Positions 28,758 through 44,334 of a stretch of DNA of 64,000 nucleotides are shown in pieces. Position 1 is the first letter of the stretch. Each line of letters starts with the position of its first letter. The notes beneath the pieces are model-generated. The model did not search any database and had not been told where the DNA came from. It saw only the letters and a list, made by a program, of their open reading frames with translations. A program made the position numbers and the translations under genes. Source of the stretch: Bacilli bacterium (GTDB lineage: Bacteria; Bacillota_I; Bacilli_A; ML615J-28; CAG-698); NCBI GenBank assembly GCA_050174575.1, contig JBFXJT010000007.1, positions 6,648 to 70,647 of the forward strand. The letters run 5' to 3'.

Positions 28758-29284
28758 AAAAAATAATATTATTCCTCCTTTTTGTTAGTTTACTTGCTAT
28801 CGTTGGTTGTACAATTGGTGAAAACACAACTGTTAAAATGTCTTTAAAGTCTGGTATCGATACAGTTGAAATTAATAGCGAATATGTTGATCCAGGTGTC
28901 AAAGCAACTTTTGGTTTATTGAGCCTTGATGTCAAGGTCGTTTCTTCAACCGTCAACACCCAAATGCTCGGGGCTTATGAAATTGTTTATGAAGCTAGTT
29001 ATAACGGTATTTTTAAAACAATTACACGAATAGTGACTGTAATTGATGATACTGCCCCTATTATTTACTTAAATCCTGGTGTTGACACTATTTTAATCGG
29101 TGAAAATTGGGTTGACGCTGGTGTTACGATAACCGACAATAGCAATGTTGTGATTGACCCCATCATAACTGGAGAAATTAACAATCAAGTTGTTGGTGAT
29201 TATGAAATTGTTTATCAAGCAAAAGACTCAAGCAACAATATTAATCAAATTATCCGTATAGTTCATGTTATTGATAACGAATAA
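28754..29284 (+). CDS. Lipoprotein with two DUF5011 (Ig-like) domains
   Basis: Lipobox LLAIVGC. Two ~65-aa modules of the pattern VD.G..A.......G.YEIVY.A.D..G......R.V.VID. Start overlaps the protease stop (ATGA). Confidence 0.7.
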   Translation: MKKIILFLLFVSLLAIVGCTIGENTTVKMSLKSGIDTVEINSEYVDPGVKATFGLLSLDVKVVSSTVNTQMLGAYEIVYEASYNGIFKTITRIVTVIDDTAPIIYLNPGVDTILIGENWVDAGVTITDNSNVVIDPIITGEINNQVVGDYEIVYQAKDSSNNINQIIRIVHVIDNE

Positions 29285-29310
29285 AAAAAGGTCCGATTTT
29301 CGGACCTTCT
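29283..29310 (-). terminator. Terminator of the fructan operon (after the fructokinase gene)
   Basis: GGUCCGA-aaa-UCGGACC followed by UUUUUUU on the minus strand. The same hairpin follows the convergent plus-strand gene, but with a poor U-tract. Confidence 0.75.
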
Positions 29311-30254
29311 CACATTAAATTATTTATTTCATCTAAGGTAGGAAGGGCATCAATTGCCCCTTTTTTTGTTGTCACTAACGCGCCTGAAATATTACCAAAC
29401 CGTAAAATTTGTACAATTTGCTCATCAGTTAAATCATCAATATCTAATTTGTCTAAATTGACTAAAACACCAGCATAGAAAGCGTCTCCTGCACCCGTTG
29501 TATCAATTGGTTTTACAATAATTGATGGTACTTTGAGCAAGCGCCCATGGTGAAAAAAAACAGAGCCATCTTTTCCCAAAGTCAAAAAGACTATTTGGTT
29601 TTTTGTTGTGAGTTTCATCAATCCTTTTTCTAAATCTGTTTCACCAGTAAATAAAATTAATTCGTCTTGAGATATTTTTAAATAATCTGCCTTTTTTGCG
29701 TAATATGTATAAATGTTAATTGCTGTTTGCGCATCAACGAATAAATCATCGCGATAGTTAACATCAAAACTTAATGATTTATGGCTTTTTTTCACAAGTT
29801 TAATAATGTGATTTGCAAGTTCTCTTCCTTTTGGTTCGCTTAACAGTAATGAACCAAGATGAACAATATCAGCTTGTTTGATGGCTTCTAAGCTGGTTTT
29901 GGGGATATGAAAATCCGCTTGGTTTTTGTGATAAAAACTAAAGTGGCGTTCGCCATCATCGTCATTCGCAACAAATGCTAAAGTAGTATTGTGAAATGGA
30001 TCTTCCGTAATTAATGTTTTAGAAAAAGGAATTTTAGATGCAAAATCAATTAAAAATTGACCCATCAAATCAACTCCGACATTTCCAACGAACTGAACAT
30101 TTCCTCCATACTTAGCAATGCCACAAGCAACATTAAAAGGAGCTCCACCCGCAAATGTTTGATAAGACATCGTGTTATTAACTTTTTGACCTATTAAATC
30201 AACAAGGATTTCGCCAATACAGACTATCATTTGTTTCTCCTTAAGTTGTTTCAC
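29310..30254 (-). CDS. scrK: Fructokinase (PfkB/ribokinase family)
   Basis: 314 aa with the PfkB signature DTTGAGDAFYAG. Position at the end of the fructan locus, overlapping the lacI-family gene, supports the fructokinase call. Confidence 0.75.
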   Translation of the reverse strand: MKQLKEKQMIVCIGEILVDLIGQKVNNTMSYQTFAGGAPFNVACGIAKYGGNVQFVGNVGVDLMGQFLIDFASKIPFSKTLITEDPFHNTTLAFVANDDDGERHFSFYHKNQADFHIPKTSLEAIKQADIVHLGSLLLSEPKGRELANHIIKLVKKSHKSLSFDVNYRDDLFVDAQTAINIYTYYAKKADYLKISQDELILFTGETDLEKGLMKLTTKNQIVFLTLGKDGSVFFHHGRLLKVPSIIVKPIDTTGAGDAFYAGVLVNLDKLDIDDLTDEQIVQILRFGNISGALVTTKKGAIDALPTLDEINNLM

Positions 30255-31203
30255 CTAAAATTAAATTAGTTGGAACAAAAATGAATTCTTCCGATGTTTC
30301 ATGATTAATTCGTAATATCAGTTGATTAACAATGGCAACGGCAAGAGCTTCAATATCTTGTTTGACAACAGTAAATTTAGGATGTTGTAAAATCTCATCC
30401 ATGACTCCATCAAATGCAATGATTTTGATTTCTTCAGGAACTTTTTTTCCAAGTTGAGTAGCTATCTGAAAGCAAGTATTGGCAAAGGTATCACTTTGGG
30501 CAAAAATTCCGTCCAATGTTGGGTTCTCTTGCATAAATTGTTTTGCAACAACAAATTCTTCACCATGATATACATTCTTATAACAAGAAGTCGGAACCAT
30601 ATTATATTTTTGCATTACATCCAAATAAGCAAAGTAACGTTTTTGTGTTTCTGAAGGAGCAGTGGACATACCACCAATATAGCCAATGTGATGACACCCT
30701 TTTTGGACAAGATGCTCAATGGCTTTAAAAGTACTTTCATAATTATCACTTGTAACACAAGGAACGTTGTCGAGATGACGATCCAAAGTCACTATGTTTA
30801 GCCCTTTGAAATCAACATCCTGATATAAGTGATTGGTGATGAAAATAATCCCGTCGACTTGTCCTGTCTTAATCATATTCAATAAATGAACTTCTTTATC
30901 TCTTTTTCCTTGAGAACTGACAATAATCATTTTGAAACCTTTTTTATACAAGTAATCCTCAATGTAAAAAGCAATTTTACTAAAGAAAACGTGACTAATG
31001 GTTGGAACAAATAGGGCAACTAATCCAGATCTTTGTGCCTGTAGATTTCGCCCTAATTGATTAGGAATGTAATTGAGTGCTTTAATTGCATCTTCTATTT
31101 TTTTTCGCGATTCTTCAGATACATAACCGTTTTTATTAATGTATCGCGAAACAGTTCCCATGCCAACCCCAGCTCGTTTTGCAACTTCTTTCATTTGGGC
31201 CAA
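30241..31203 (-). CDS. LacI-family transcriptional regulator (probable repressor of the fructan operon)
   Basis: N-terminal HTH MAQMKEVAKRAGVGMGTVSRYIN and a C-terminal periplasmic-binding-protein-like sugar-binding domain. Confidence 0.85.
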   Translation of the reverse strand: MAQMKEVAKRAGVGMGTVSRYINKNGYVSEESRKKIEDAIKALNYIPNQLGRNLQAQRSGLVALFVPTISHVFFSKIAFYIEDYLYKKGFKMIIVSSQGKRDKEVHLLNMIKTGQVDGIIFITNHLYQDVDFKGLNIVTLDRHLDNVPCVTSDNYESTFKAIEHLVQKGCHHIGYIGGMSTAPSETQKRYFAYLDVMQKYNMVPTSCYKNVYHGEEFVVAKQFMQENPTLDGIFAQSDTFANTCFQIATQLGKKVPEEIKIIAFDGVMDEILQHPKFTVVKQDIEALAVAIVNQLILRINHETSEEFIFVPTNLILGETT

Positions 31204-31283
31204 GGTAGTCGCCTCCTAACATGTTTTCATAAACTATATTATATCACTACGTACTACTATTTTTTAACCGTTTTTCGAAATAT

Positions 31284-31344
31284 TGTAATGAAAGTAGTTC
31301 TTTCATGGATGATTAACATCATTTTGAAAGAACTACTTTATTAT
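31284..31344 (-). repeat. Long inverted repeat / RNA hairpin between the 914-aa gene and lacI
   Basis: Arms TAATGAAAGTAGTTCTTTCA (31284-31303) and TGAAAGAACTACTTTATTA (31326-31344) are about 19 of 20 complementary, with a ~20-nt loop. Each arm is itself a GAAAG...CTTTC mini-palindrome. Confidence 0.7.
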
Positions 31345-31353
31345 TAAACAACC

Positions 31354-34098
31354 TTATCCCATTTGATTAGTAATTGTTTGCCATGGAATATTGTGTGTTC
31401 GTTCGACAGTCCATTGATCGCTCGTATCTTTACTGTAAAGAGTTACGGTATCAAAGCCATTAGCAATATCTGGAGTAACTGCATAGTATGTTACAACTTC
31501 ATCAAAGAAGGCAACAGCCCAACCAGCTACTTCAATATCACAAAGTTCCAAATACAATTCCTGGCCTAAGTAAGCACTTAAATCAATAAAATATGTCCCC
31601 ATATCTGCCCATGATCCACCTAAATCTACACTTGGGAAATTGGTATCGCTAAAACGATTTTGTTTATATAAACCAATTTGTGTCCCGTCAGCTAAATAAA
31701 CTTTTACAGCTGCAGCATTAGCACCCATTTTTAAAGAAATAAAGCCTGTTCCGTGAAGAGTAAAATTGGTTGAGCGTAATGAATATTGCTCGCTTTCCGC
31801 AACACCTGAAGTCCATCCGTCAAAGTGATAATCACCGCTTTGGTTATATGGTAATTTTTCATTCCAATAATGTGTTTGACTTATAACAGCATTAACTGTA
31901 ACTTTTTCAGAAGTCCAACCAGTCATATCACCAGTTTCAAAACCTCCATTGATAATTAAACCATTATTGCCCATTTCCCATTCGATATTAACATCTGGTT
32001 CTTGGACACTGTCTTTTGTAGAACCAGCAACAGTATCAAAGCCATTTGCAACATCAGGAACAGTTGTATGATAGAAATTAATATCATCAAAGAAAGAAAC
32101 TGCCCAACCAGCTGTAGCTGGATCATCAATCAATTCAACATAAACTTTTTCGCCTAAATAAGCCGATAAGTCCGCAAAGTAACGTGTCATGGTCGCTAAA
32201 CGTCCACCATTAGCAAGGTATGGGAAATCAAAATCTTTGAAACGATAATTTGTGAAATAACCGATGACTGTTCCATCTTCTTTTACAACACGAACAGCGG
32301 CAGCTTTTCCACCCATCATGAAGGAAACCCAACCAGTACCAGATAATGTAAATAATCCAGAGCGTAAAGTATAACCAGCTGATTCCACGCTTGTTGCTGT
32401 CCAACCATCAAAATGGTAATTTCCTTGTTGGTTATAAGCAATCATTTCGCCCCAGAAAGTTTCTGCGCTTAAGGCACCATTAATTATATCGCCAAAAACA
32501 ACACTCCAACCAGTCATATCACCTGTTTCAAATCCACCGTTTGCGACATTGGTATCGGCAGAAACGACAACATTGAATGTGCTCGTAACTGTTTCGCTTT
32601 CATAAGTTGTCCCATAATGAACAACATATGTTCCTTCTTGATCAAAATCAAAAGCATCAAATCCTGTTGTAAACTCTGTTTCGCCTAAAACAACTTTTGT
32701 AATGACAGCTGGTACAGCCGTTTCGCCATAAGTTATCACGACATCAGCCATTAATGCTGTCAAGTTGTAATCATTTACCATCGCCGTTACAAAACCTTCT
32801 GCTTCAGTTTCAATCATTAAGGCAGGTAATTCAAATGGATAATCATAATTTGTATAGTATTCTTGTAAATGAGCTAGCGAATTATATGAATCGGTGTATG
32901 TTTCTGCCATAATTGCTTGGAAAGTAGATTTCATTAAAGCTTTTACTTCAACTTCCGTCATACTAACACGGAAATCATCAGCATTGATGAAAGCAAATCC
33001 GCTACTTGGATTGTTGTCCACAATCGAGATGTACAACACATCGCCAAGGTATTCGGATGCATCAACATAAACGCGACGTAATGTCAATGGTAATCCTGGA
33101 TCGTTAAATGTTGTATTAGTGACTTGGATTAATTCTGCATCTGTTGTTCCGTCATTAATAGAAATATAACAATTTGTTGGCCCAGAACCAATCATAAAGG
33201 AAATCCAACCATCACCGGCTAATGTGAATTTTGTAGAACGGATTGCTCCAACTGCTGATTCGGCAGTAGCTGCATTGTTATTTCCGTCTAAATAATAATC
33301 ACCTTCACCATAAACCATACGATCAGTCCAATAAAATTGTGATGTTGGAACGACAACTGTTCCACCAAATGCTGTACCGCTTAATTGTTTCCAACCAGTT
33401 AAATCACCTGTTTCAAACCCACCATTTGTAATCGTTGTTGATGTTGGGTCTTCTTCAAATTCTGGTTCTCCATAAGCTTCAATTTGGGCATCACGTTCTG
33501 CTTGCATAGCTGTAACTTCTGCTTCAGTCAAACAAACTACAAAATCATCTAAATTGACATAGCCATAATCATCGGTGTTATCACTGTCAGTTACTCTGAT
33601 ATAAATGATTTTATTCAAATGTGCTGATAAATCAACAACTCTTCTGATCATTTGATCAGTAATAAATGGTTCATCATAATCAGTATTCGTTATTTTTAAC
33701 AAAGCCGTGGCATTGTCTTTTTCAAAGAACTCAACAAAAATCTTATCTTGATTTTTTGCAGCTCCCATTTTAAAAGCAATTTTACCAGTTCCAGTTAATT
33801 TAAAGAAAGAAGATGTTAGTGTACCAACCATTTGTTGAGTACCACCATCCGTTCCACTGAACCAAAATTCTCCTGTTTTATCTACAGTAATTCCATTTAC
33901 TTTTAGATCATTAACGATACCGCGAGGACTAAAAGCCGTTTCTGTTTTTGTCCATCCCGTCCAAACTTCTGCTGTTCCAACTTCAAATCCACCGTTTGTA
34001 ATTTGGGTTGGATACTCTTCTTCTTTACCACATGCTGCTAACAATAATAAAGAGAGTGCTAGCATAAATACAAAGGTAAAACGCCATGTTTTTTTCAT
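31354..34098 (-). CDS. Surface lipoprotein made of four tandem CBM-like (ConA-like/CBM66-like) beta-sandwich modules; putative fructan-binding protein
   Basis: Lipobox LLLAAC. Four ~190-230-aa repeats each open with NGGFE.G...GW (ITNGGFEVGTAEVW, ITNGGFETGDLTGW, VANGGFETGDMTGW, IINGGFETGDMTGW) and end with ...Y..(V/I)(N/D)DF. The N-terminal module of the adjacent GH32 enzyme is homologous. Confidence 0.6.
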   Translation of the reverse strand: MKKTWRFTFVFMLALSLLLLAACGKEEEYPTQITNGGFEVGTAEVWTGWTKTETAFSPRGIVNDLKVNGITVDKTGEFWFSGTDGGTQQMVGTLTSSFFKLTGTGKIAFKMGAAKNQDKIFVEFFEKDNATALLKITNTDYDEPFITDQMIRRVVDLSAHLNKIIYIRVTDSDNTDDYGYVNLDDFVVCLTEAEVTAMQAERDAQIEAYGEPEFEEDPTSTTITNGGFETGDLTGWKQLSGTAFGGTVVVPTSQFYWTDRMVYGEGDYYLDGNNNAATAESAVGAIRSTKFTLAGDGWISFMIGSGPTNCYISINDGTTDAELIQVTNTTFNDPGLPLTLRRVYVDASEYLGDVLYISIVDNNPSSGFAFINADDFRVSMTEVEVKALMKSTFQAIMAETYTDSYNSLAHLQEYYTNYDYPFELPALMIETEAEGFVTAMVNDYNLTALMADVVITYGETAVPAVITKVVLGETEFTTGFDAFDFDQEGTYVVHYGTTYESETVTSTFNVVVSADTNVANGGFETGDMTGWSVVFGDIINGALSAETFWGEMIAYNQQGNYHFDGWTATSVESAGYTLRSGLFTLSGTGWVSFMMGGKAAAVRVVKEDGTVIGYFTNYRFKDFDFPYLANGGRLATMTRYFADLSAYLGEKVYVELIDDPATAGWAVSFFDDINFYHTTVPDVANGFDTVAGSTKDSVQEPDVNIEWEMGNNGLIINGGFETGDMTGWTSEKVTVNAVISQTHYWNEKLPYNQSGDYHFDGWTSGVAESEQYSLRSTNFTLHGTGFISLKMGANAAAVKVYLADGTQIGLYKQNRFSDTNFPSVDLGGSWADMGTYFIDLSAYLGQELYLELCDIEVAGWAVAFFDEVVTYYAVTPDIANGFDTVTLYSKDTSDQWTVERTHNIPWQTITNQMG

Positions 34099-34115
34099 TT
34101 TTTTCTCCTTTTCCT

Positions 34116-36164
34116 CTATTTTACAATAATGTCATATTTGCTTATTTGCTTTAATATAGAACTTCCCCCAACAGTGAAAAATTCAATACCAGTGTCATTT
34201 AAGCCTGGGTAAACATTTCCAGTCATCGTAATATAACCATCATTAATAAAGACTTCAACACTGGAAACGTCTAAAAAGATTCGTAATTTTAAAATCCCAT
34301 TATTTAAGGAAACGTCAGCACTCCTAGTTTGACGGTTGATTTCCGCACCACTGATTGTTTCACCTGAATTTCCTCGATCAAAGATAACTGTTTGTGAAAG
34401 AGCATCATAATAAACTAATGTTTCGTTTTCTGTTCCTTTAAACAGTTTCACCCCAACTTTAGATGCAGATCCAACTTCAATTTCAAGTTCCAGTTCAACC
34501 GTCTTACCAGAAATTTGTGGGAGGACTAAGTTTCCATTAATCGTTTTATTTTGATAACTGACTTCATTTTGACGATAATTTTCGATTTCTCTAACTGGGG
34601 CTTGATAAATATGGCCATCTTTATAGGTCAATTCTCTTGGCAAGGTATAAGCACCAACCCAGTTATGCGCTTGTGTGACTAAAGTACGATCCCACATTTG
34701 CATCCATGCTAGCATAATTGTTCGTCCATCAGGCGTTATCATCGTTTGAGCAGCATAGAAATCAAATCCACCGTCAAATTCTTGAAATTCATCATAATTG
34801 AATTTCCCCGTTTGATAATCAATTCCACCAACCATATAAACTACCGAGTGAATATTTTCAAATTTCGTCTTGTCTCTTGGTAAATTTTGTGGACTAACAA
34901 TTAAAATCTCTTGATTATTTAACTCAATAAAATCTGGGCATTCATAAACACCATTTAACTGTAAGAAATTTGGTGCTTGAGGATTGTTATTGTTCATGAC
35001 TTTGCCAACATAATCCCAACTAGTTAAATTGCTCGAACGATAAAGGACAACCATGCCATAGCCATTTGCTTTCGTACCGATCAAACAATAATAATATCCA
35101 TCATGATAAAACACTTTTGGATCACGAAAATCAGCTGTTGATACACCGATTGGTACCTCAATTGTAGAAATAACTGGATTACGGGTTAATTTTTCAAAAT
35201 TAATCCCATCTTCGGACACTGCTAGATTTTGTGTTTGTTGATTATTGGCTACGCCAGTATACATGAGGTATAATTTCCCATCTTTTTCAATAGCCGTCCC
35301 ACTAAAGCACCCAAAATCTTGATCATATTTTTGATCGGGAGCTAAAGCTACAGGCTGTAATTCCCACTTAACAAAATCCTTCGTTGTTTGATGCCCCCAA
35401 TGCATTGGGCCCCAACTGCTGGCATAAGGGTTAAATTGGTGAAACAAATGACCTTCACCATTAAACCAAATTAATCCGTTGGGATCATTACTCCATCCTA
35501 TTGGAGATGCAGCATGATAAGTATGACGGTAAGTTGGGTTTACAGTATTAAGATTTTCAAGAACATATTGATATGCATCGTGTACTTTTCCCACTTGATC
35601 TTCAACTCCTTGATAATTAACGATAAAATCGTCAACATTGATGTAATTATAGTTATCGGTATTATTATCATTATCAATAATTTTTATTTGAACTGTTTTT
35701 CCAATATGACTACTTCCATCCAATATGACCCGATGGAGAGTATTTGGACTGCTTTCATCAAAATTTAAATTAGCGCGTGTTGCTAATTCATTCCCTCTTG
35801 AGTCAATTAAAGAAACATAACATAAGTCGACATTTGCTCCACCGCTAATCAAAAATCCGATTTTTCCATTCCCTTTTAATTGAAATTTTTCACTTAACAT
35901 AAAACCGGTTTTACTTAAGCCTGCTTTTTTACCATAAAAGAGAAATTCTCCCGTTTGGTTAAAGCGATTGCCATTTTCATCTTTGTCATTAAGAACAACA
36001 CCAGCATCAGTAAAAGCATCACCGTCTTCTTCCCAGTTTTTTAAGGTACCACTTTCAAAACTAGCGTTTAAAAAGGAATATTCGCCATCCACAGTTTGAT
36101 TACATCCTCCTAATATCATGATGAAAGAAAGAAGGATAGCAATCAAAAGCCATTTATTCTTCAT
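34116..36164 (-). CDS. GH32 beta-fructofuranosidase/levanase lipoprotein with N-terminal CBM-like module (canonical active site)
   Basis: Lipobox ILGGC. GH32 motifs WSNDPNGL (nucleophile), FSGTAI, RDPKVF and YECPDF are all present. Confidence 0.85.
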   Translation of the reverse strand: MKNKWLLIAILLSFIMILGGCNQTVDGEYSFLNASFESGTLKNWEEDGDAFTDAGVVLNDKDENGNRFNQTGEFLFYGKKAGLSKTGFMLSEKFQLKGNGKIGFLISGGANVDLCYVSLIDSRGNELATRANLNFDESSPNTLHRVILDGSSHIGKTVQIKIIDNDNNTDNYNYINVDDFIVNYQGVEDQVGKVHDAYQYVLENLNTVNPTYRHTYHAASPIGWSNDPNGLIWFNGEGHLFHQFNPYASSWGPMHWGHQTTKDFVKWELQPVALAPDQKYDQDFGCFSGTAIEKDGKLYLMYTGVANNQQTQNLAVSEDGINFEKLTRNPVISTIEVPIGVSTADFRDPKVFYHDGYYYCLIGTKANGYGMVVLYRSSNLTSWDYVGKVMNNNNPQAPNFLQLNGVYECPDFIELNNQEILIVSPQNLPRDKTKFENIHSVVYMVGGIDYQTGKFNYDEFQEFDGGFDFYAAQTMITPDGRTIMLAWMQMWDRTLVTQAHNWVGAYTLPRELTYKDGHIYQAPVREIENYRQNEVSYQNKTINGNLVLPQISGKTVELELEIEVGSASKVGVKLFKGTENETLVYYDALSQTVIFDRGNSGETISGAEINRQTRSADVSLNNGILKLRIFLDVSSVEVFINDGYITMTGNVYPGLNDTGIEFFTVGGSSILKQISKYDIIVK

Positions 36165-38544
36165 CCAGTGTTACCTCTTCATAAATTGATTTCATTGTTT
36201 TGACAGTCATTTGGTTTATGTTGACTTCACCATTTTCTGAAAACAAGAGTAACCCTAAAGATGAAGGATCGGGATAAATACGGGCAGAAATAGCTTTTTC
36301 ATTGTTGAAAAAAGCTTCAATTAAAGAACGGTCGAGGTAAATATCCATGACTAAAATATTATTATCTAAAACAAATGAGCCATAGAAATTTCCTGAAATG
36401 TTTTGGTTATCGCTTAATGCACCACTTAAACCTGTTTTTACTCCTAAGGTTTTTAATGTCTCATTAAAATAAAGCGTTGTTTCTTCTAACGTAGTGGCGT
36501 TCTTGCGAACTTTTATTCCAAACAAAGTAGCATTAATGTTTTCAAATTCTACGTGAATATAAAGCATGTCACCCTTTACATCAGTTAATAGGGTGTTGGC
36601 TTCACTGATGGACTTATTGCTCATTGTGACTAATGTCTCTTGGTAATAGTCTTCTAGTGCGGATACTGGGCGAATCATTAAATCCGTTCCGTCACTGTTT
36701 AAATAAACTTCTCTAGCCAGTCCAACACAGTTTGCCCACCCAGATAAATAGACATCCGATGGTTTCCTTTGATCCTGCATGATACTGAAAAGATAAGTTT
36801 TTTGGGAAACTGGATCAATAAAACCTGAAGGGCCAGTAAAAACATTATTACCATAATCAAGTAGTCTTGGAGTCGTCCCAAAAGCAGGATCGGGAATAAA
36901 ACGACCAGCAGTTTTATCGAAAGTACCAAGCCAATAATAAATATCATTATCGGCACTGTCAGCAGGAGCAGGACTAATAATCAACATATATTTTGTAATT
37001 GTTTTACTTTCGTTTGTTACGGGAAGCATAATCGGAAGTTCCCAAACAGGCCCTAAATCGGCAGGTTGATTGACTTGTTCGTACAATTGCCCTTTGTAGG
37101 TCCAATTATTAAACGAGTCATCCTTTGTTGTATAAAGTAAAGCTGTCCCACCAGTATTGATTTTGGTACTTGATGATCCAATTAGTAAAAACCAAGTATC
37201 TTCTTCTTGCCAAACATGGGCATCACGAAATTGTCCCGATGCTCCTTGACCAGCTACTTGTTTAATAGCTAATTCATCATCGATTACCCATTCTGTTAAG
37301 TAGGGATCGGTTGGATCTTTGGGCCTAGCAATACCAATGTTTTGATTGCTTATCAAACCATCTTTTTGATAAGAGTCATTTCCAGCAGTAAATAGTAAGA
37401 CGGGAATGCCTTCATTATCATAAGTTACACCACCGCTCCATACACCATCCGGACAAACGGAATCAGCTGTTGGGGTGATAACTTCTTTTAATGGACGCCA
37501 ATTAACCATATCATCACTGATTAAATGCCCCCATCCAATATTGCGAAAATAAGGGCCAAACATATTGAATTGGAAAAATAAGTGATAATACCCATTGTAA
37601 TACATTGGAGCATGAGGTTCATTCATCCAGTGTTGATAAGGACCACCATGATATTGTGTTTTATAAAAATCATCTGTCAGAATATTTTGTAACCAAATAT
37701 CCTCAAAAGCAATTTCCGGAACTGTCTTACTTTCGTAAACTTGCTTTACATCATTTGCTTGTAAACTGGCTTCATAGACTTTTAACTCATCAATCAATCC
37801 ACTTACCATATTTAAAGTTGCCGTAGCATTCGAACCTGGATAACTATTACGAGCAATGAGGAAGGGTTCGCCCGACGCTCCCATAATGGTTGCCCCTTCG
37901 AAAAAATAATCAATGTTGACTAATTCGCCATTTAAATATATGGCCATTTCGCCTTGATCACCATCGAAGGTTGCCACAATATGATTCCATTCATATTTTT
38001 TAAGGGGATTACCTTCATCCCATAAAGTTAACCATCGGTCACCAAGACCTACTTGAAAGCTCCAAGAACCATGGCGTTGATAGCCAAGAATAAATCCTTG
38101 GTTTTCACTTTTATTGTGTTGAGAAACAATCGCTGTTAATTTATCAGTTCCATTGTCTTTGGCATTGGGATCGTCCCACTCAAAGGCCCTTGGAGCAATC
38201 CAAACACTAATTGATAATTTTGAACCGCGAATTTTTAAATCTTCTTCTTGATAACGGATAAAATTAGAATATCCATCAAACAATAAGGAGCCATTATTGA
38301 TCCCTGTTGCGCGCCACTGTGGATCCTCAGGATTTTCCATAAAGCTAGGGTTTGTGAAAACATAAGCAACAGTCGCTGGAGCTTCGTTTTTCGAAGCATC
38401 ATTCACTTTGTTGCCCTGACCTTCATCAAAAGTTAAATGTAACAATAAATCTTTTGTATAAGGGTCGCTCTTTCCACATGCATATAAACTTGAAACAATG
38501 AATAATAGGAAAAAAATAGTCAATAGTTTTTTTGTTATCATCAT
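36154..38544 (-). CDS. GH32-like lipoprotein with N-terminal LamG-like domain; variant active-site motifs
   Basis: Lipobox LYAC; N-terminal ConA/LamG-like domain. The GH32 block reads WMNEPHAPMYYNGYYHLFFQFN...WGHLISDDMVNW, but the canonical NDPNG is NEPHA, RDP is RDA (FRDAHVW), and EC is EL (WELPIM). Confidence 0.75.
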   Translation of the reverse strand: MMITKKLLTIFFLLFIVSSLYACGKSDPYTKDLLLHLTFDEGQGNKVNDASKNEAPATVAYVFTNPSFMENPEDPQWRATGINNGSLLFDGYSNFIRYQEEDLKIRGSKLSISVWIAPRAFEWDDPNAKDNGTDKLTAIVSQHNKSENQGFILGYQRHGSWSFQVGLGDRWLTLWDEGNPLKKYEWNHIVATFDGDQGEMAIYLNGELVNIDYFFEGATIMGASGEPFLIARNSYPGSNATATLNMVSGLIDELKVYEASLQANDVKQVYESKTVPEIAFEDIWLQNILTDDFYKTQYHGGPYQHWMNEPHAPMYYNGYYHLFFQFNMFGPYFRNIGWGHLISDDMVNWRPLKEVITPTADSVCPDGVWSGGVTYDNEGIPVLLFTAGNDSYQKDGLISNQNIGIARPKDPTDPYLTEWVIDDELAIKQVAGQGASGQFRDAHVWQEEDTWFLLIGSSSTKINTGGTALLYTTKDDSFNNWTYKGQLYEQVNQPADLGPVWELPIMLPVTNESKTITKYMLIISPAPADSADNDIYYWLGTFDKTAGRFIPDPAFGTTPRLLDYGNNVFTGPSGFIDPVSQKTYLFSIMQDQRKPSDVYLSGWANCVGLAREVYLNSDGTDLMIRPVSALEDYYQETLVTMSNKSISEANTLLTDVKGDMLYIHVEFENINATLFGIKVRKNATTLEETTLYFNETLKTLGVKTGLSGALSDNQNISGNFYGSFVLDNNILVMDIYLDRSLIEAFFNNEKAISARIYPDPSSLGLLLFSENGEVNINQMTVKTMKSIYEEVTLDEE

Positions 38545-38555
38545 CTTTTTCCCTC

Positions 38556-40904
38556 CTAGATTGTTTTCATTTTAATTACTTGCAAAACATCAACCATAAT
38601 TTGACCATCAGCAAATAACGACATTTCCGATGCATTGTTATAAACCATCGCCGTCAATGTTTGATACCCATTGATGTATATTTCAATCATTGCTCCATCA
38701 ATAAATATTTCTAAATCTAATACTTCCCCAGGAAGAAGAGAAATTCCTCCCCCAAAGATTCCTTTCACAACACTATTTCCAGAATTAGTTGTATCAATTG
38801 AAATAAATTGATCGATTGCGTTATAATTTAGGACTGTCTTTCTCCCTAGTTGATCTTCTTTTAAAGTAAGTCCAAAATTTTGAGAATTTTCATTAGTTAA
38901 TTGAACATGCAAGTATAACTGATTGCCGACCACTGATGCTAAAGCTTGGTTTGCAAATTCAATATTAGTATCTTTTTTATCAACAATGACATCAGTTTTT
39001 AAATTATTTAATTCGTTTAAAGGGGTAATTTTTAAACTGCCGGCATCATCAAGTGACAATTGACGAGGAATACCAGCAGTATGGGCCCATCCTGCATCAT
39101 AATCTTGATGACCATTTCGTTGGCCTTGAATAATGCTACAAATTAAAACACGTCCTGTTAGGGGATCCGTCGAAACCGTTGGCCCCGTAAACACATTGTT
39201 CCCAAAATCCATTAATTTTGGATCTTCATGTTCAGGAATAAAAGTCATCGTTGTTTTATCGAAGTCCCCCAAATAATAGTAAATATCATTATCCGCACCA
39301 GAACCCGCGGGAGAAAACGCAAATATATACTTAGAAACTGTTTTATTAGCGTTCGTTATTTTCGCAAGATTTACTAATTCCCATGTCGTACCCATATAAT
39401 TATGATAAACAGAAGGCATGAACAGTTCGCCTTGATAATCCCAATTCAAAAAAGAATCGTCTTGAGTTGTAAATACTTGGGCAGTTCCTTTATTATCATA
39501 ACGAGCAGATCCGACAAACATGTAGTAAGTTCCATCTTCAAAATAAATATTTGGATCACGAAATTCGTTTGTTTTGGCCATTGATGGTGTTGAGACGGCT
39601 ACTAATTGATCGCTTACATCCCACTCCGTTAAATCAGGATCGCTTAAATCTTTCGGTATTGCAATGGCGATATTTTGATTGCTCCATTGCCCAAAGCTTT
39701 TGGCATCATCACCGGCTGTAAAAAATAATACGGGTGTTCCATCAGCTTTGTATGACGCTCCTCCCGACCAAATACCATCAGGACAAACAGAATTTTTCAT
39801 AAGAATAATGGCTTCTTTCACATTGCGCCAATTGACCATATCAGGACTTACCCAATGACCCCATGCAATTTGCCGCCAGTATGGCCCAGTAAGATTAAAT
39901 TGATAAAACAAATGGTAATTTCCATTGAAATAAAACAAAGCATGTGGTTCATTCATCCAATGTTGAGGTGGTGAAGCATGATATTGAGGTTTGTATATAT
40001 CATCATCTAGCAATTCGTCATTAAGCCAAGCATCTTTAAAATCAATGGCTTTCATGCGGTTTTTTTGTACAAAACTGTTGTGATAGGCTATTATATCCTC
40101 TTCTTTAATTGATGCTTGGTAAATTTTAAGTTCGTCCATTAAACCATTGAACATATTAATTTCATAAAGGCCTGTTTTTTGGGGAACCTGGCTTTTTCCG
40201 ATATACAAAGATGTATTCGCAGCAATAATCTCGCCAAATACATCATTGTGAAAATTAATTATTTCCCCGTTTTTGTATATCCCCATAAATCCGTTTGTTC
40301 CATCAAAAACAAAGGTAAGATGATTCCAAGTATAACGGTCAAGATCATTCCACTCATTCCAAAGTTTAACCCAGCGATCGCCAAGTCCTATTTGAAAGGA
40401 ATATTCACCATATTTATGCATGCCGATAACAAAACCTTGATTTTCTGACATGATGTATTGCCCTAAAACAACTTGCAAATGCTCCGTTCCGTTAACAACT
40501 GCTCCTGGAACATCCCATTCAAACATCCTTGGGCTAATGAATAAATCAATAGTTAAGTTAGGACCGCTAATTTGAATATCCTGATAATCATATTTTATAT
40601 AATTCGAATAACCATCAAAGGCTAAACATGCACCACTAATTGCTGAATTTGTAATCCAAGTTGGATCAATCGATTGCTTGTATTCAGCATCCGTGAAGAC
40701 ATATTCAATCGTGGCTTTTGTCATTGTTGTTTGTTCAGTAAGTTCGTTACCTTCATTTTCATCAAAAGAAGTTGCAAATATTAATTTATCTTGATAAGGG
40801 TCATGATAATCGTGATAATAAATTGCATCCTCCTCTGTTTTTGCACAACCAATAAAGGCCATCATTAAACAAAAAACTGTGATAATTAATAAACCTTTTT
40901 TCAA
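38556..40904 (-). CDS. GH32-like lipoprotein with N-terminal LamG-like domain; paralog with NEPHA motif
   Basis: Lipobox FIGC. WMNEPHALFYFNGNYHLFYQFN...WGHWVSPDMVNW; RDP retained (EFRDPNIYF); EC replaced by EL (WELVNL). Confidence 0.75.
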   Translation of the reverse strand: MKKGLLIITVFCLMMAFIGCAKTEEDAIYYHDYHDPYQDKLIFATSFDENEGNELTEQTTMTKATIEYVFTDAEYKQSIDPTWITNSAISGACLAFDGYSNYIKYDYQDIQISGPNLTIDLFISPRMFEWDVPGAVVNGTEHLQVVLGQYIMSENQGFVIGMHKYGEYSFQIGLGDRWVKLWNEWNDLDRYTWNHLTFVFDGTNGFMGIYKNGEIINFHNDVFGEIIAANTSLYIGKSQVPQKTGLYEINMFNGLMDELKIYQASIKEEDIIAYHNSFVQKNRMKAIDFKDAWLNDELLDDDIYKPQYHASPPQHWMNEPHALFYFNGNYHLFYQFNLTGPYWRQIAWGHWVSPDMVNWRNVKEAIILMKNSVCPDGIWSGGASYKADGTPVLFFTAGDDAKSFGQWSNQNIAIAIPKDLSDPDLTEWDVSDQLVAVSTPSMAKTNEFRDPNIYFEDGTYYMFVGSARYDNKGTAQVFTTQDDSFLNWDYQGELFMPSVYHNYMGTTWELVNLAKITNANKTVSKYIFAFSPAGSGADNDIYYYLGDFDKTTMTFIPEHEDPKLMDFGNNVFTGPTVSTDPLTGRVLICSIIQGQRNGHQDYDAGWAHTAGIPRQLSLDDAGSLKITPLNELNNLKTDVIVDKKDTNIEFANQALASVVGNQLYLHVQLTNENSQNFGLTLKEDQLGRKTVLNYNAIDQFISIDTTNSGNSVVKGIFGGGISLLPGEVLDLEIFIDGAMIEIYINGYQTLTAMVYNNASEMSLFADGQIMVDVLQVIKMKTI

Positions 40905-40916
40905 ATTACCACTTCC

Positions 40917-41843
40917 TTACTTCAATCCAGTAAAAGCGACACCTTCAATAATATATCTTTGAGCAAAAATATAAACTAAGGCGATCGGAATCGTACTAAA
41001 TGTTAAGGATGCCATAACTAAAGAAATATCTTTCGGATTAAAATTATTAATCAACTGTAAAAATACTTGCAAAGGTTGTTGCACTGGATTAGAGAACATT
41101 AATTGTGCAAACACATATTCGTTCCAACTTCCCATAAATGTAAAAATAGCGACTGTTGCAAATACTGGCAATGATAGAGGAACAATAACCTTAAAGAAGG
41201 TTGTTAATTTACTAGCACCATCAACATAAGCTGCTTCTTCTAATTCTTTAGGAATTCCCAAGAAAAAAGCCCGAAACATGAAGATATAAAAGGGACTAAC
41301 AATACCTGGTAATAAATAACCAATGACTCTCAATTCTGCTGTCAATAATCCCAAATTTTTTAAAATAACATACAAAGGAACAATAGAAGTCTCAACAGGA
41401 ACAATTAATATTAAAATAATGATACTAACGATGGTTTTATGACCAGGAAAAACAAAACGAGACAACGCATAACCGGCAAGTGAGTTAACTAATAAAACAC
41501 CTGTAATCGAAATTGTTGCATAAATGACACTGTTAAGAATGGATCTTCCAAAATTATCAAAAGTTGCAAATAAATTTTGATAAGATAAAAACCATTTGCT
41601 GATATTCCAAGTAGCTGGTAAAAAGGTTTTTATGGAATTGATGGAGGCATACACTTCTGCTTGAGTTTTAAAACTATTCGAAAGCATCCATACTACAGGA
41701 AATAAAAAGATAATGCATAGCACGATTAAAAAAATTCTAAATAATGTTTTCGCAATTATTTCACGAACTGAGTAATGTCTTTTTTGTTTTTTAGGCAATT
41801 GTAGTATTGATAATGGAATGTTTTTTCGCTTCTTTTTCATCAT
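40917..41843 (-). CDS. Carbohydrate ABC transporter permease (MalG-like)
   Basis: EAA loop EAAYVDGASKLTTFFKVIVPLSLP and six TM segments. Start placed at the internal MMKKKRK, since the long-ORF start overlaps the upstream permease by 23 nt. Confidence 0.8.
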   Translation of the reverse strand: MMKKKRKNIPLSILQLPKKQKRHYSVREIIAKTLFRIFLIVLCIIFLFPVVWMLSNSFKTQAEVYASINSIKTFLPATWNISKWFLSYQNLFATFDNFGRSILNSVIYATISITGVLLVNSLAGYALSRFVFPGHKTIVSIIILILIVPVETSIVPLYVILKNLGLLTAELRVIGYLLPGIVSPFYIFMFRAFFLGIPKELEEAAYVDGASKLTTFFKVIVPLSLPVFATVAIFTFMGSWNEYVFAQLMFSNPVQQPLQVFLQLINNFNPKDISLVMASLTFSTIPIALVYIFAQRYIIEGVAFTGLK

Positions 41844-41850
41844 TATCACC

Positions 41851-42783
41851 TCAAATTGTGTTATCTTTCTCAAAGACTTTTCTTAAGGTTAAAGCAATCG
41901 TAGCCATAAAGATGGTATAAATTAAAGCGATGGCACTTGAATAACCAACATCCCGGAAATTAATACCTTGCAAATAAATATAATAAGACATCGTTAAGGT
42001 CCGGTCAATCGGACCTCCTCTTGTCATAATCATTGGTTGGGTAATCAACCTAAATGCCCCAATCATCATTGTAATCAGCACAAATGAGAATGTAGGCTTG
42101 ATGCTAGGAAGGGTAATCCGCCAGAATTGTTGGAATTTATTCGCTCCATCGATGCTTGATGCTTCATACAGCTCTTTTGGAATATTTTTTAGTGCTGACA
42201 AGAAAATTAACATTTGGTAACCTGCTCCCTGCCAAGCAGAAATCATGACAATTAAATCCATGGCTTGTTCGGGATCGCTTAAGAAAAGTTGTCTCGATAA
42301 ACCAATAGTTTCAAGGAGGGCATTTATCAATCCATCTTGCTCATTCAATAAGTTAATCCATAACATCGATGTGACCGCCAATGACAACATTGTTGGCACA
42401 AAGAATGCCCATCTAAAAAAGGTATTTCCCTTCATTGGCTTATTTAAAATCAAGGCTAACAAAAGAGCTGCACCAAGTTGTAACGGAATAACTTTTAAAA
42501 CAAATTCCATTGTGTTTTTAAATGCTTGAAGAAGAATTTTATCTTGAAAGGCATTTTTAAAGTTTGCAAAACCAATAAAAGTTGTATTATTTAACTCTAA
42601 TAAATTGGCATCTGTAAACGAATAGGCTAGAGAAATAACAATGGGCATAATGACAAATATAATTCCTAAAATAACAGCAGGAAGCAAAAAACTCCAACCT
42701 ATAATCGTATCAGAAGTTCGGTATGTTTTCCCAAATAATTTAAAATACATTCGGGTATTTGGTTTTTTTACAGATCCTACCAT
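41851..42783 (-). CDS. Carbohydrate ABC transporter permease (MalF-like)
   Basis: EAA loop EASSIDGANKFQQFWRITLP and six TM segments. Confidence 0.8.
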   Translation of the reverse strand: MVGSVKKPNTRMYFKLFGKTYRTSDTIIGWSFLLPAVILGIIFVIMPIVISLAYSFTDANLLELNNTTFIGFANFKNAFQDKILLQAFKNTMEFVLKVIPLQLGAALLLALILNKPMKGNTFFRWAFFVPTMLSLAVTSMLWINLLNEQDGLINALLETIGLSRQLFLSDPEQAMDLIVMISAWQGAGYQMLIFLSALKNIPKELYEASSIDGANKFQQFWRITLPSIKPTFSFVLITMMIGAFRLITQPMIMTRGGPIDRTLTMSYYIYLQGINFRDVGYSSAIALIYTIFMATIALTLRKVFEKDNTI

Positions 42784-42793
42784 TTTTCACCTC

Positions 42794-44134
42794 TTAATTG
42801 TCAATTTGAACGACTTGAGTGTCAATGTAATCTTCTAAATTGTATTCTGTTGTTCCATTCATTGTTTCGATGTATTCAATAATTTTACTGTAGCTACTAC
42901 TTACTTTAGGATAGTTGATCATTTTTGGTCGGGGAGTAGCAATTTCTTGTAAAATAGTTGCTAATGAACCTAAAGCTCCCGTTTGGAATCCTGTTAAATC
43001 ATTCAAAAGTGATTTATGGGTTGGAAATGTTCCAATTGATTCATACATTAATTGGCTTCCAGTAACTCCTGTTATATAAGCAACAGCAATCGCTGCTGAA
43101 GCAGGATCGGATGAATTAACCGTTACTCCAAATCCCCATGAACCACAACCAGCAACCGGCGTTCCTTTTGTAGTTTCGTCTTCATAAACAGGCATCGGCA
43201 TAATTCCATAACTTGGAATAAAAGTATTATAATTTTTCTTAATCGTCGAAATATTCCATGGTCCGTGAATTTCAAAAGCGCATTCTCCACCTGCTAAAGC
43301 ATCTGTATTGCTGCCATTGTAAACCCAAGGTTCGCCATCATCATCGGGGTTGAAGAACATTTCTAACATTTTAATTCCTTTAATAGAATTAGAAGAGTTA
43401 AGGGCACCATCAACGACTTCATTGGCGCCAAAGAAACTCCCACCTGAAGAATATATTAATGATGAATATAAATACATGACACCTTCATCGCCACCAAATC
43501 CTAAGTTCAATTTAATTCGATATTCAAGGTTGGCAGCTTTTAGGGCAACCATTGCTTCCATAACATCAAGCCAAGACCAAGGATTAGTAACTGTCCCAAA
43601 ATCTTCTTCATCATAACCAACTTGCTTTAATAAATCCTTATTAAAATACATTCCAGTTGGCGCATCCATACCGGATAAAGCATATAATTTTCCATCAATC
43701 GTACTTTGTTCGATGACGCTGTCAACATAACTCGAAGTAATATCAGTTGTTAAATATTGATCAATCGGTGCTAAAATGCCCGCATCAGCATAAGCAGCTA
43801 TATTAGGGGCATCAACAGCAACAATGTCAGGAAGTCCTCCTGATAGAATTTCCGCGTTGATTGCTGTTTGTAAAGTATCAGAACTGTTTTTAAATTCTAA
43901 TTTCATTTTTAAAATTCTTGTTCCATCAGCAGTTTTTAATTGTTGTTCATTAAACAATTCAGCAATTGTGGAATAAACAATCCCTTCATCTTCTGCTTCG
44001 GATTTATGAACCCAAACCTTAATTACTTTTACCTCGTCCGTATCTTCATCTTCTGCTGGACCACAACCAACAAACACCAAGAAACTAAGCAAAAGTACCA
44101 TAACACTTAAAAAAAGTTTTCCAAAATTTTTCAT
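42794..44134 (-). CDS. Extracellular solute-binding lipoprotein (family 1, CUT1 sugar ABC)
   Basis: Lipobox FVGCGP; 446 aa SBP_bac_1-like. It is the first gene of the fructan operon. Confidence 0.8.
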   Translation of the reverse strand: MKNFGKLFLSVMVLLLSFLVFVGCGPAEDEDTDEVKVIKVWVHKSEAEDEGIVYSTIAELFNEQQLKTADGTRILKMKLEFKNSSDTLQTAINAEILSGGLPDIVAVDAPNIAAYADAGILAPIDQYLTTDITSSYVDSVIEQSTIDGKLYALSGMDAPTGMYFNKDLLKQVGYDEEDFGTVTNPWSWLDVMEAMVALKAANLEYRIKLNLGFGGDEGVMYLYSSLIYSSGGSFFGANEVVDGALNSSNSIKGIKMLEMFFNPDDDGEPWVYNGSNTDALAGGECAFEIHGPWNISTIKKNYNTFIPSYGIMPMPVYEDETTKGTPVAGCGSWGFGVTVNSSDPASAAIAVAYITGVTGSQLMYESIGTFPTHKSLLNDLTGFQTGALGSLATILQEIATPRPKMINYPKVSSSYSKIIEYIETMNGTTEYNLEDYIDTQVVQIDN

Positions 44135-44223: not shown

Positions 44224-44237
44224 TGGAATCGTTTCCA
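44224..44237 (-). promoter_or_regulatory. LacI-type operator O2 (TGGAAtCGtTTCCA)
   Basis: 14-bp near-palindrome matching the LacI-family/cre consensus TGnAAnCGnTTnCA, ~50 nt downstream of the predicted TSS of the SBP gene. Confidence 0.65.
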
Positions 44238-44279
44238 TGTTTTGCTAAAAAAAAGAAAAAATCTTATTTTTTTAAAATG

Positions 44280-44293
44280 TGGAAACGATTCCT
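44280..44293 (-). promoter_or_regulatory. LacI-type operator O1 (AGGAATCGTTTCCA on the minus strand)
   Basis: Second copy, 13 of 14 identical to O2, immediately downstream of the -10 element and overlapping the TSS. The two operators are 56 bp centre to centre. Confidence 0.65.
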
Positions 44294-44305
44294 CTAGTTG
44301 CTTTT

Positions 44306-44334
44306 ATTTTAAACCACCCCGTTTTTTTTGTCAA
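44306..44334 (-). promoter_or_regulatory. Sigma70 promoter of the fructan operon
   Basis: Minus strand TTGACA (44329-44334), a 17-nt spacer, then TAAAAT (44306-44311). Confidence 0.6.

Follow-up and report, generated by a model that had tools for sequence, protein, structure and literature searches.

Two adjacent genes, ORF A and ORF B, on the reverse strand of this 64,000-nucleotide stretch of DNA (the window) encode lipoproteins that, judging from their sequences and gene context, most probably act at the surface as endo- or oligosaccharide-releasing inulinases, feeding an ABC importer, an exo-acting GH32 enzyme and a fructokinase under LacI control. Both belong to a LamG-GH32 clade with Glu at the position of the catalytic nucleophile, and I consider it somewhat better than an even bet that they are active, membrane-anchored surface enzymes that cleave internal inulin bonds. 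The substrate, the endo mode and hydrolysis over transfer are what I infer for the two proteins from the evidence set out below.

ORF A (36154..38544, minus strand; 796 aa, ATG start) and ORF B (38556..40904, minus strand; 782 aa, TTG start) share 40% identity from end to end, and each combines a LamG-like domain, a GH32 beta-propeller and a GH32 C-terminal sandwich, matched in Pfam by Laminin_G_3, Glyco_hydro_32N and Glyco_hydro_32C with E-values between 1e-13 and 1e-57. The LamG-like (Laminin_G_3) beta-sandwich of A covers residues ~33-270 (37735..38448, minus strand), and the AF2 model of the protein has a pLDDT of 94.1 and a pTM of 0.91. Database protein P0001 is identical to A; the database copy of B (P0121) begins 13 aa later and lacks the signal, while the TTG start, preceded ~8 nt upstream by an AAGGAAG Shine-Dalgarno sequence, opens an MKK...FIGC lipoprotein signal. 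A signal peptide and lipobox Cys stand at the N-terminus of both proteins (LYAC in A, FIGC in B), the lipobox sequences assigned purely by pattern matching being MMITKKLLTIFFLLFIVSSLYAC for A and (M)KKGLLIITVFCLMMAFIGC for B, and the same kind of pattern match finds a lipobox-like motif in 110 of the 120 matches to A and in 18 of the 23 closest matches to B.

The initial annotation had described two paralogous GH32 lipoproteins carrying WMNEPHA where the canonical ORF C has WSNDPNG, and translation and Pfam searches confirm the reading frames, their coordinates and the motifs. The block occupies residues 306-312 of A (37609..37629, minus strand; E309 codon at 37618-37620) and 316-322 of B (39939..39959, minus strand; E319 codon at 39948-39950), and its Glu pairs, in a phmmer search against the PDB, with the nucleophile Asp of WMNDPNG in the Arabidopsis cell-wall invertase 2AC1, bearing out the proposed Asp-to-Glu exchange at the true nucleophile position. 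In the same alignment RDA pairs with RDP and WEL with WEC, so that D441 of A (FRDA; 37222..37224, minus strand), the transition-state stabiliser, lies on the RDP Asp of 2AC1 and E502 (WELP; 37039..37041, minus strand), the general acid/base, on the WECP Glu, both residues being kept. The predicted triads are E309/D441/E502 in A and E319/D450/E509 in B, with stabiliser blocks FRDA and FRDP and acid/base blocks VWELP and TWELV, respectively, and YHLF(F/Y)QFN, WGH and DMVNW common to the two proteins. The further claim that all three signature blocks are altered is right for the letters but not for the catalytic residues, as the RD-x Asp and the E-x Glu are invariant; a single catalytic residue of the three differs in A and B, the nucleophile Asp having become Glu. 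The triad that defines GH32 (a carboxylate in WMN(D/E)PN, the RDP Asp and the EC Glu) is present in both, and the loss of catalytic carboxylates known from dead GH32-like binding proteins is seen in neither, all three being kept.

The Glu is also a property of the clade. Searches with A and B gave 205 homologues of 700-830 aa, and WMNEPH[ASGV] is present in 195 of them (the remaining 10 failed the search pattern), far above chance; across 69 diverse members E309, D441 and E502 are invariant, as are W306, M307, P310, H311, Q325, W338-G339-H340, W369 and G371, with N308, R440 and S370 at least 90% conserved. Among the best 150 cluster representatives at 50% identity, 138 of the ~150 catalytic domains that align have Glu in the nucleophile column, and where Asp stands instead it mostly belongs to a canonical GH32 domain that comes second in a fusion protein. 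With NEP[H/Y] kept in ~200 homologues as well as in these 138 domains, and with low dN/dS values (0.052 for A and 0.062 for B, next to 0.057 for the canonical C), the motif is not decay, and the suggestion of a distinct subfamily stands: A and B belong to a LamG-fused group under purifying selection. Degenerate members of the wider clade do occur (P0315 and P0343, with nucleophile and acid/base replaced and the RD block altered), and A and B are unlike them. A genome scan of a collection with one genome per species confirmed at least 530 stretches encoding a relative, and a single variant accounts for ~1,500 indexed blocks in the assembly collection. Under the name 'InuG', a Thermoanaerobacter italicus member of the family exists as a deposited synthetic construct. 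Database annotation of the clade reads only 'sucrose-6-phosphate hydrolase SacC' or 'GH32 C-terminal domain-containing protein'. The bacteria that carry these genes come largely from the rumen and the guts of herbivores, whose diets also include levan-type and mixed grass fructans, a point against the inulin reading.

In the literature, the GH32 nucleophile motif is written WMN(D/E)PN, with WMNEPNG regarded as the hallmark of endo-inulinases and WMNDPNG as that of exo-inulinases, and the endo-inulinase hallmark, Glu at the nucleophile position, is present in A and B as WMNEPHA. The idea that a Glu nucleophile is unusual for GH32 therefore has to be given up, because Glu is established in the Aspergillus ficuum endo-inulinase INU2 (Glu43) and in the Arthrobacter sp. 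S37 endo-inulinase EnIA (Glu323). Of the two observations that the initial annotation had named as counting against it, one applies, since active characterised GH32 enzymes with NEP exist, but the nucleophile does not turn out to be another Asp of blade 1. For INU2, E43 is the experimentally established nucleophile and the E43D mutant keeps ~5% of the activity with product size unchanged, so Glu itself is not what sets the endo mode. Its acid/base block is EVPDM, the neighbouring P and C positions varying among active GH32 enzymes. INU2 (PDB 3RWK/3SC7; EC 3.2.1.7) is fungal, secreted and soluble, has no LamG domain and carries PNG in place of PHA, and with only 21-24% identity it is no closer to A than invertases are; by sequence and Foldseek, 3RWK and 3SC7 rank 16-17 as matches to the catalytic domain, with invertases and exo-enzymes no more distant; the Glu of the clade may thus have an independent origin, and between Glu and endo action there is a correlation. 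Some authors also hold that the fungal 'endo-inulinases' are really F3/F4-releasing enzymes. EnIA, in which mutagenesis identified Glu323, Asp460 and Glu519, resembles A (309/441/502) and B (319/450/509) in triad spacing as far as published residue numbers tell; its gene of 2439 bp gives ~812 aa, and the triad positions imply an N-terminal extension of ~300 residues. Its motif is reported as WMNEPNG, in contrast to WMNEPHA, and the 'RDF' variant of RDP reported for it is also carried by B-type homologues.

Canonical exo-GH32 enzymes (ORF C, Thermotoga maritima invertase, Bifidobacterium longum beta-fructofuranosidase and Arabidopsis CWINV1) have the fold, the sequence blocks, the RD-Asp and the acid/base Glu in common with A and B, but their nucleophile is Asp (W[MS]NDPNG) and they lack the LamG domain; A and C are 25% identical. 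The endo-levanases, Bacteroides thetaiotaomicron BT1760 and Bacillus licheniformis LevB1 (PDB 9H8I), likewise have Asp, unlike A and B, and the characterised Glu-type enzymes compared here (INU2, EnIA and CFTase) all act on inulin. The literature searched contains no activity report for A, B or any relative more than 40% identical.

The closest characterised relative found is the cycloinulo-oligosaccharide fructanotransferase (CFTase) of Niallia (Bacillus) circulans (UniProt O52973), a GH32 member whose residues 557-1312 align by BLASTP with residues 30-790 of A at 39% identity (E 1e-170) and which is 35% identical to B (E 8e-151), the two alignments spanning ~760-780 residues. The core of LamG, GH32N and GH32C is contiguous and homologous over its full length in all three proteins, and the CFTase blocks are WMNEAHA, FRDP and WELP, again with Glu at the nucleophile position, so that the block reads N-E-x-[H/Y]-[A/G], with NEPHA in A and B and NEAHA in CFTase. 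Pfam PF13385 is recorded for protein P0478. CFTase is, however, a secreted multi-module protein of 1503 aa with repeats, classed as CBM38 in CAZy, fused on both sides of the core, whereas A and B are lipoproteins of ~790 aa without repeats. Its main reaction is cyclising transfer, and a transferase as the nearest characterised homologue found, rather than a hydrolase, counts against A and B being hydrolases. All six long proteins of the Paenibacillus/Niallia type (~1460-1560 aa), CFTase included, carry WMNEAHA, and if a CFTase proper is defined as a single chain of ~1300-1500 aa with repeats flanking the core at either end, A and B fall outside the definition. The CFTase clade lies close to that of A and B in a neighbour-joining tree without support values.

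The repeats are found in this locus on separate proteins. ORF C (34116..36164, minus strand), which shares its first 11 nt with the end of A, encodes a canonical GH32 lipoprotein (WSNDPNG/FRDP/YECP), presumed to be an exo-fructosidase, with an N-terminal repeat-type domain homologous to the CFTase accessory repeats, and ORF D (31354..34098, minus strand) encodes a lipoprotein of 914 aa with four repeats (NGGFETGD..GW), presumed to be a surface inulin-binding protein. Pfam and PDB sequence searches with D returned no match; its repeats have their homologues in the non-catalytic ones that flank the CFTase core, D being 37% identical to CFTase residues 53-442 over 417 aa (E 1e-67), and in 29 of the 81 fetched loci a sequence aligns with D over 400 aa or more. 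On the other side of A and B lies an ABC importer (40917..44134, minus strand), composed of a solute-binding lipoprotein (42794-44134) and permeases (41851-42783 and 40917-41873), and beyond D follow a LacI-family regulator (30241-31203, minus strand), a PfkB-family sugar kinase, presumed to be a fructokinase (29310-30254, minus strand), and a terminator-like hairpin (29285-29311). The operon is conserved: its solute-binding protein is 57% identical to that of a related gut locus (L079), and at least one gut organism of high prevalence has the Glu-type gene beside a solute-binding protein, a pair of permeases, PfkB, LacI and a D-like protein. The control region (44225..44334, minus strand) contains a promoter-like TTGACA-17-TAAAAT at 44334-44306 and inverted copies of TGGAAACGATTCC, a LacI/cre-type palindrome, at 44280-44292 and 44225-44237; the palindrome occurs twice in the 64 kb against 0.1 expected, and its core, GGAAACGNTTCC, recurs, mostly paired, upstream of those related loci that have it. 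The 64-kb window contains no cytoplasmic GH32 to process imported oligosaccharides, which speaks against the favoured reading.

Taken as a surface system for inulin, these parts suggest the following route. Lipoprotein processing would tether A and B to the outer face of the membrane, where the LamG-like sandwich and the repeat protein D, a separate chain, may jointly bind polymeric inulin-type fructan while the five-bladed propeller cuts internal beta-(2,1)-fructosyl bonds by a retaining double displacement, with E309 (A) or E319 (B) as the predicted nucleophile, D441 or D450 as stabiliser and E502 or E509 as acid/base. The short inulo-oligosaccharides so released could be trimmed by the canonical exo-GH32 C, imported by the ABC system, or both, fructose would be phosphorylated by the PfkB kinase, and the LacI repressor would control the operon through its pair of palindromic operators. 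Glu, with its longer side chain, may suit a -1 subsite holding an internal, O1-substituted fructosyl unit rather than a buried terminal one.

Other readings of the same evidence can be made, and the one nearest to the homology is that A, B or both are CFTase-like transfructosylases that pass the fructosyl chain intramolecularly (to give cyclofructans) or to acceptors other than water. The initial annotation had mentioned transfructosylation, and the suggestion does match the closest characterised homologue and its neighbouring clade, with all CFTase modules (repeats, LamG and GH32) represented in the locus, though such an activity of A and B is a prediction; it seems unlikely, as the long CFTase-type proteins have WMNEAHA and CFTase itself has the repeats fused, in contrast to A and B, and the locus looks purely catabolic (exo-GH32, importer and fructokinase), with no enzyme that opens cyclic or anhydro-fructans evident in the operon. 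I would give a similarly low weight to A and B being endo-fructanases for levan-type or mixed-linkage fructans (graminan, phlein, agavin), between which the paralogues may split beta-2,1 and beta-2,6 bonds, because the characterised endo-levanases use Asp, the Glu-type enzymes compared act on inulin and the accessory repeats have their homologues in an inulin-acting enzyme. It is only a minor possibility that the LamG-GH32(Glu) lipoproteins of gut and rumen are transfructosylating or cyclising enzymes, or that A and B form a pair with different linkage specificities (beta-2,1 as opposed to beta-2,6 or branched); if so, very common gut Firmicutes would make unusual surface fructan products, such as cyclofructans or defined oligomers, importable only by their own ABC system.

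Rather less probable still is that A and B are ordinary exo-acting beta-fructofuranosidases in which the Glu is irrelevant to the mode of action, a reading that would accord with the intact GH32 active-site blocks and with the top ranking of exo-enzymes and invertases by sequence and Foldseek, but would place three surface exo-enzymes in one operon and would set A and B apart from the characterised Glu-type GH32 enzymes, which are not simple exo-hydrolases. In the fetched loci the Glu-type gene nearly always adjoins a canonical WMNDPNG GH32, and natural fusions of canonical GH32 to LamG-GH32(Glu) were found; such pairing suggests complementary roles and argues against purely exo-acting enzymes. 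It is very improbable that A and B are GH32 derivatives which bind fructan without catalysis, as had also been proposed: a surface lipoprotein anchor, a fused lectin-like domain and the replaced canonical nucleophile would suit such a role, but the triad is complete and invariant, as are the conserved GH32 blocks surrounding it, with competent carboxylates at all three catalytic positions, nothing in them recalls the degenerate P0315 and P0343, and Glu is a proven nucleophile in GH32.

Internal cleavage of inulin at the surface thus remains the reading I favour, and since the Glu substitution is already known from inulin-cutting enzymes, the Glu-type LamG-GH32 proteins are a widespread, poorly annotated branch of a known family and not a new mechanism, leaving our understanding of GH32 catalysis unchanged. 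Inulin is the most widely used prebiotic, yet which gut Firmicutes attack the long polymer extracellularly, and by which enzyme, is poorly known. Recognition of the clade as the inulin-acting, Glu-nucleophile branch to which CFTase belongs provides a sequence marker for primary fructan degraders (LamG plus W-x-N-E-x-[HY]-[AG]), a defined and conserved locus (solute-binding protein, permeases, enzyme, exo-GH32, repeat protein, LacI, kinase and operator) and candidate enzymes for the production of inulo-oligosaccharides.

The GH32 enzymes with an altered nucleophile block are encoded by two adjoining minus-strand genes, ORF A (36154-38544, 796 aa) and ORF B (38556-40904, 782 aa, with AAGGAAG upstream of a TTG start), and the next gene after A, ORF C (34116-36164), encodes a canonical GH32 with WSNDPNG, FRDP and YECP. 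Both A and B carry an N-terminal lipoprotein signal (ending in LYAC and FIGC, respectively), then a Laminin_G_3 (LamG) domain and the N- and C-terminal domains of GH32; they are 40% identical to one another over their full length, while A shares only 25% identity with C. WMNEPHA is present in both, accompanied by FRDA and WELP in A and by FRDP and WELV in B, and on checking ORFs, domains and motifs, every statement about these sequences in the initial annotation proved correct. The publicly available version of B, P0121 (769 aa), begins at an internal Met and has no signal peptide (window 40866-40904); with the TTG start at 40904 and its Shine-Dalgarno sequence, a normal lipoprotein signal is regained.

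It had also been proposed that all three catalytic blocks are changed, and of this the Asp-to-Glu exchange at the nucleophile stands, while the other two blocks keep their catalytic residues. In a phmmer comparison with the PDB, the Glu of WMNEPHA fell on the Asp that serves as nucleophile in Arabidopsis cell-wall invertase (WMNDPNG), the Asp of RDA paired with that of RDP, and the Glu of WEL paired with the acid/base Glu of WEC. Since the latter two align with canonical residues, the nucleophile is the sole catalytic difference, and the P-to-A and C-to-L changes affect non-catalytic neighbouring positions. Another conserved Asp elsewhere in blade 1 is unsupported as the nucleophile, given that the Glu sits exactly on the canonical Asp. 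In an alignment of 69 family sequences the predicted triad of A (nucleophile E309, stabiliser D441 and acid/base E502) is invariant, as are W306, M307, P310, H311, Q325, W338-G339-H340, W369 and G371, with N308, R440 and S370 conserved in at least 90%; the AlphaFold model of A (pLDDT 94.1, pTM 0.91) matches only GH32 structures in its catalytic part. Relative to the orthologues in locus L001, dN/dS was 0.052 for A, 0.062 for B and 0.057 for the canonical C, figures that are rough as dS is saturated. Intact ORFs, dN/dS of ~0.05-0.06 and invariant motifs rule out random decay or a pseudogene, as the initial annotation had held, and the distinct subfamily it suggested is real and under selection, putatively with an altered reaction profile.

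What did not survive is the notion that a Glu nucleophile is unusual: inulin-acting GH32 enzymes are documented to have it, the literature gives the family motif as WMN(D/E)PN, and A and B are new, uncharacterised members of this group. In the Aspergillus ficuum endo-inulinase INU2 (YWMNEPNG, with EVPDM as the acid/base block), Glu43 is the established nucleophile, and the E43D variant retains ~5% activity with product sizes unchanged. Mutagenesis of EnIA, the endo-inulinase of Arthrobacter sp. S37 (gene of 2439 bp), identified Glu323, Asp460 and Glu519, a spacing like that of A (309/441/502) and B (319/450/509), and the published numbering implies an N-terminal extension of ~300 residues, a lead towards a possible likeness in architecture. 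In the open literature we found nothing on the WMNEPHA LamG-GH32 subfamily, the matches being WMNEPNG endo-inulinase papers only; the clade is not recognised in a bioinformatic census of bacterial inulinases (PMC10390659), and a study of human butyrate producers (PMC7833758) contains no Glu-type LamG-GH32, its extracellular GH32 enzymes carrying CBM66 and NDPNG.

The nearest characterised relative of A and B that we found is a transfructosylase, the cycloinulo-oligosaccharide fructanotransferase (CFTase) of Niallia (Bacillus) circulans (P0478, UniProt O52973), which was reached by searching from a Streptomyces protein of the clade. Its residues 557-1312, with the motifs WMNEAHA, FRDP and WELP, share 39% identity with residues 30-790 of A (E 1e-170) and 35% with B, and the non-catalytic repeats that flank this core (~53-550 and 1325-1490) show homology both to the operon's protein D, with its four repeats, and to C in its N-terminal domain. 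Protein D (31354-34098, minus strand) is a 914-aa lipoprotein with no Pfam match and no PDB sequence match, and only the CFTase comparison (37% identity over 417 aa, E 1e-67) indicated what it is; it also shows homology to C's N-terminal domain. We take the CFTase repeats to be inulin-binding CBM38 modules as classified in CAZy, and D to be CBM38-like. From this homology D is probably a surface inulin-binding protein, and in 29 of the 81 loci fetched a stretch of at least 400 aa aligned with it.

A neighbour-joining tree without support values places A-type and B-type proteins as sister clades, next to Thermoanaerobacter, Vibrio and the CFTase clade, followed by further Bacillales and Actinobacteria (a Streptomyces rochei protein among them), with a WTNEP branch outermost. 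The Thermoanaerobacter italicus member is deposited as a synthetic construct, "InuG", for which no paper was found in the open literature. An S. rochei protein (P0423, P0424; 977 aa) combines LamG-GH32 and WMNEPHA with a C-terminal repeat domain, and might be the inulotriose-producing, inulin-degrading enzyme reported from S. rochei E87.

A and B lie within a nine-gene minus-strand operon comprising a solute-binding lipoprotein (SBP, 42794-44134), two ABC permeases, B, A, C, D, a LacI-family regulator (30241-31203) and a PfkB kinase (29310-30254), with a terminator-like hairpin at either end. Between a near-consensus promoter-like site (44334-44306) and the SBP gene are two inverted exact copies of the LacI/cre-type palindrome TGGAAACGATTCC (44225-44237 and 44280-44292), which occurs nowhere else in the 64 kb, where 0.1 copies would be expected; its core GGAAACGNTTCC is found again, mostly paired, ahead of the SBP gene region in 16 related loci (L001, L003-L011, L025 and L079-L081 among them), and these palindromes are likely the operator of the operon's own LacI regulator. 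All three GH32 proteins, D and the SBP are lipoproteins (window 29310-44134), and the operon has neither an ABC ATPase gene nor a cytoplasmic GH32 that could hydrolyse imported oligosaccharides. In the neighbouring DNA (26073-29284, plus strand, and 22517-24157, minus strand), an S8 subtilase with Ig-like surface domains as well as four Listeria-Bacteroides repeats, then a small Ig-like protein, converges on the operon's end, and a PAS-GGDEF-hemerythrin protein lies beyond them.

A Glu-type enzyme adjoins a canonical WMNDPNG GH32 in the majority of the 81 loci (L079-L081 included), with the order B-A-C kept in three and A-C-B in another three. One variant, P0067, is 56% identical to A and is indexed in ~1,500 blocks of the assembly collection; in its locus the gene order is SBP, two permeases, PfkB, LamG-GH32(Glu), GH32, D-like protein and LacI, and this GH32 has 499 aa and no signal peptide. 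In the related gut locus L079 no signal peptide precedes the canonical GH32. In Priestia, Neobacillus and several cluster representatives the two enzymes are fused in one open frame of ~1800 aa, the canonical WMNDPNG GH32 preceding LamG and the WMNEPHA GH32 (L068 7331-12790, L070 7391-12790, L071 7331-12790 and L077 6846-12305; also P0224, P0227, P0228, P0245 and P0251), which argues that canonical and Glu-type GH32 work together.

Given these sequence comparisons, we lean towards A and B being endo- or oligosaccharide-releasing hydrolases, active and tethered at the surface, that would begin polymer breakdown by cleaving inulin-type fructan held by D and the LamG domain. The oligosaccharides would be finished by C, or in other species by a cytoplasmic GH32, and the products would enter glycolysis through the ABC system and the kinase. 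The longer Glu may compensate for a -1 site that has to accommodate an internal, O1-substituted fructose, and it would accompany the endo mode rather than cause it, since INU2 E43D lost activity without a change in product size.

The initial annotation's suggestion of altered mechanism or specificity is partly right, and its transfructosylase variant agrees with the CFTase relationship; that A and B themselves perform CFTase-like transfer nevertheless strikes us as rather improbable. We are similarly doubtful of a specificity for levan or mixed linkages, possibly split between A and B, the documented Glu-type enzymes being inulin-acting. A plain exo action of A and B would be a long shot. Some authors question whether the fungal "endo-inulinases" are truly random endo-enzymes. 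A purely binding, non-catalytic role is very hard to credit beside an invariant triad.

The clade of A and B is not rare. Each of the 120 top-scoring homologues of A, all with at least 53% identity, has WMNEPH[A/S/V], and of the 205 proteins of 700-830 aa homologous to A and B, 195 have WMNEPH[A/S/G/V]. When 1.8 billion cluster representatives were searched in full with an HMM, the best 150 matches were mostly LamG-GH32 module proteins, and in their aligned catalytic domains the nucleophile column holds Glu in 138, Asp in 10 (mostly the second, canonical domain of fusion proteins) and degenerate residues in 3; the block reads N-E-[PSTA]-[HY]-[AG] throughout, WMNEPHA dominating, with WTNEP[HY]G in a distant branch that has one member named Balneolales. 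Two cluster representatives of the wider LamG-GH32 clade, P0315 (WTGRPMA/FQDP/WVAP) and P0343 (WVGQPFA/FNAP/WVAS), have lost the catalytic carboxylates and are candidate non-catalytic derivatives, and a Cohnella frame of 1471 aa (L067 14755-19167) is a long multi-module Glu-type GH32 with WQNEPGG, similar in size to CFTases.

At least 530 matching stretches that encode a relative were confirmed in a collection with one genome per species, and the 78 loci retained belong to Clostridia of gut and rumen (Lachnospiraceae, Oscillospiraceae, Christensenellaceae, Faecalibacterium MAGs, Agathobacter ruminis and Pumilibacter muris) and to Bacillales of soil (Priestia megaterium, Neobacillus, Paenibacillus, Cohnella and Fontibacillus). 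The Firmicutes-type locus also appears on contigs labelled as Bacteroidales, Muribaculaceae or Staphylococcaceae MAGs (L001, CAZYFI010000002.1, syntenic and 84% identical to A; L021, L034 and L032), bin labels that look unreliable. The importance of A and B rests mainly on their belonging to a clade that is widespread and badly annotated in gut Firmicutes, with a clean and conserved locus.
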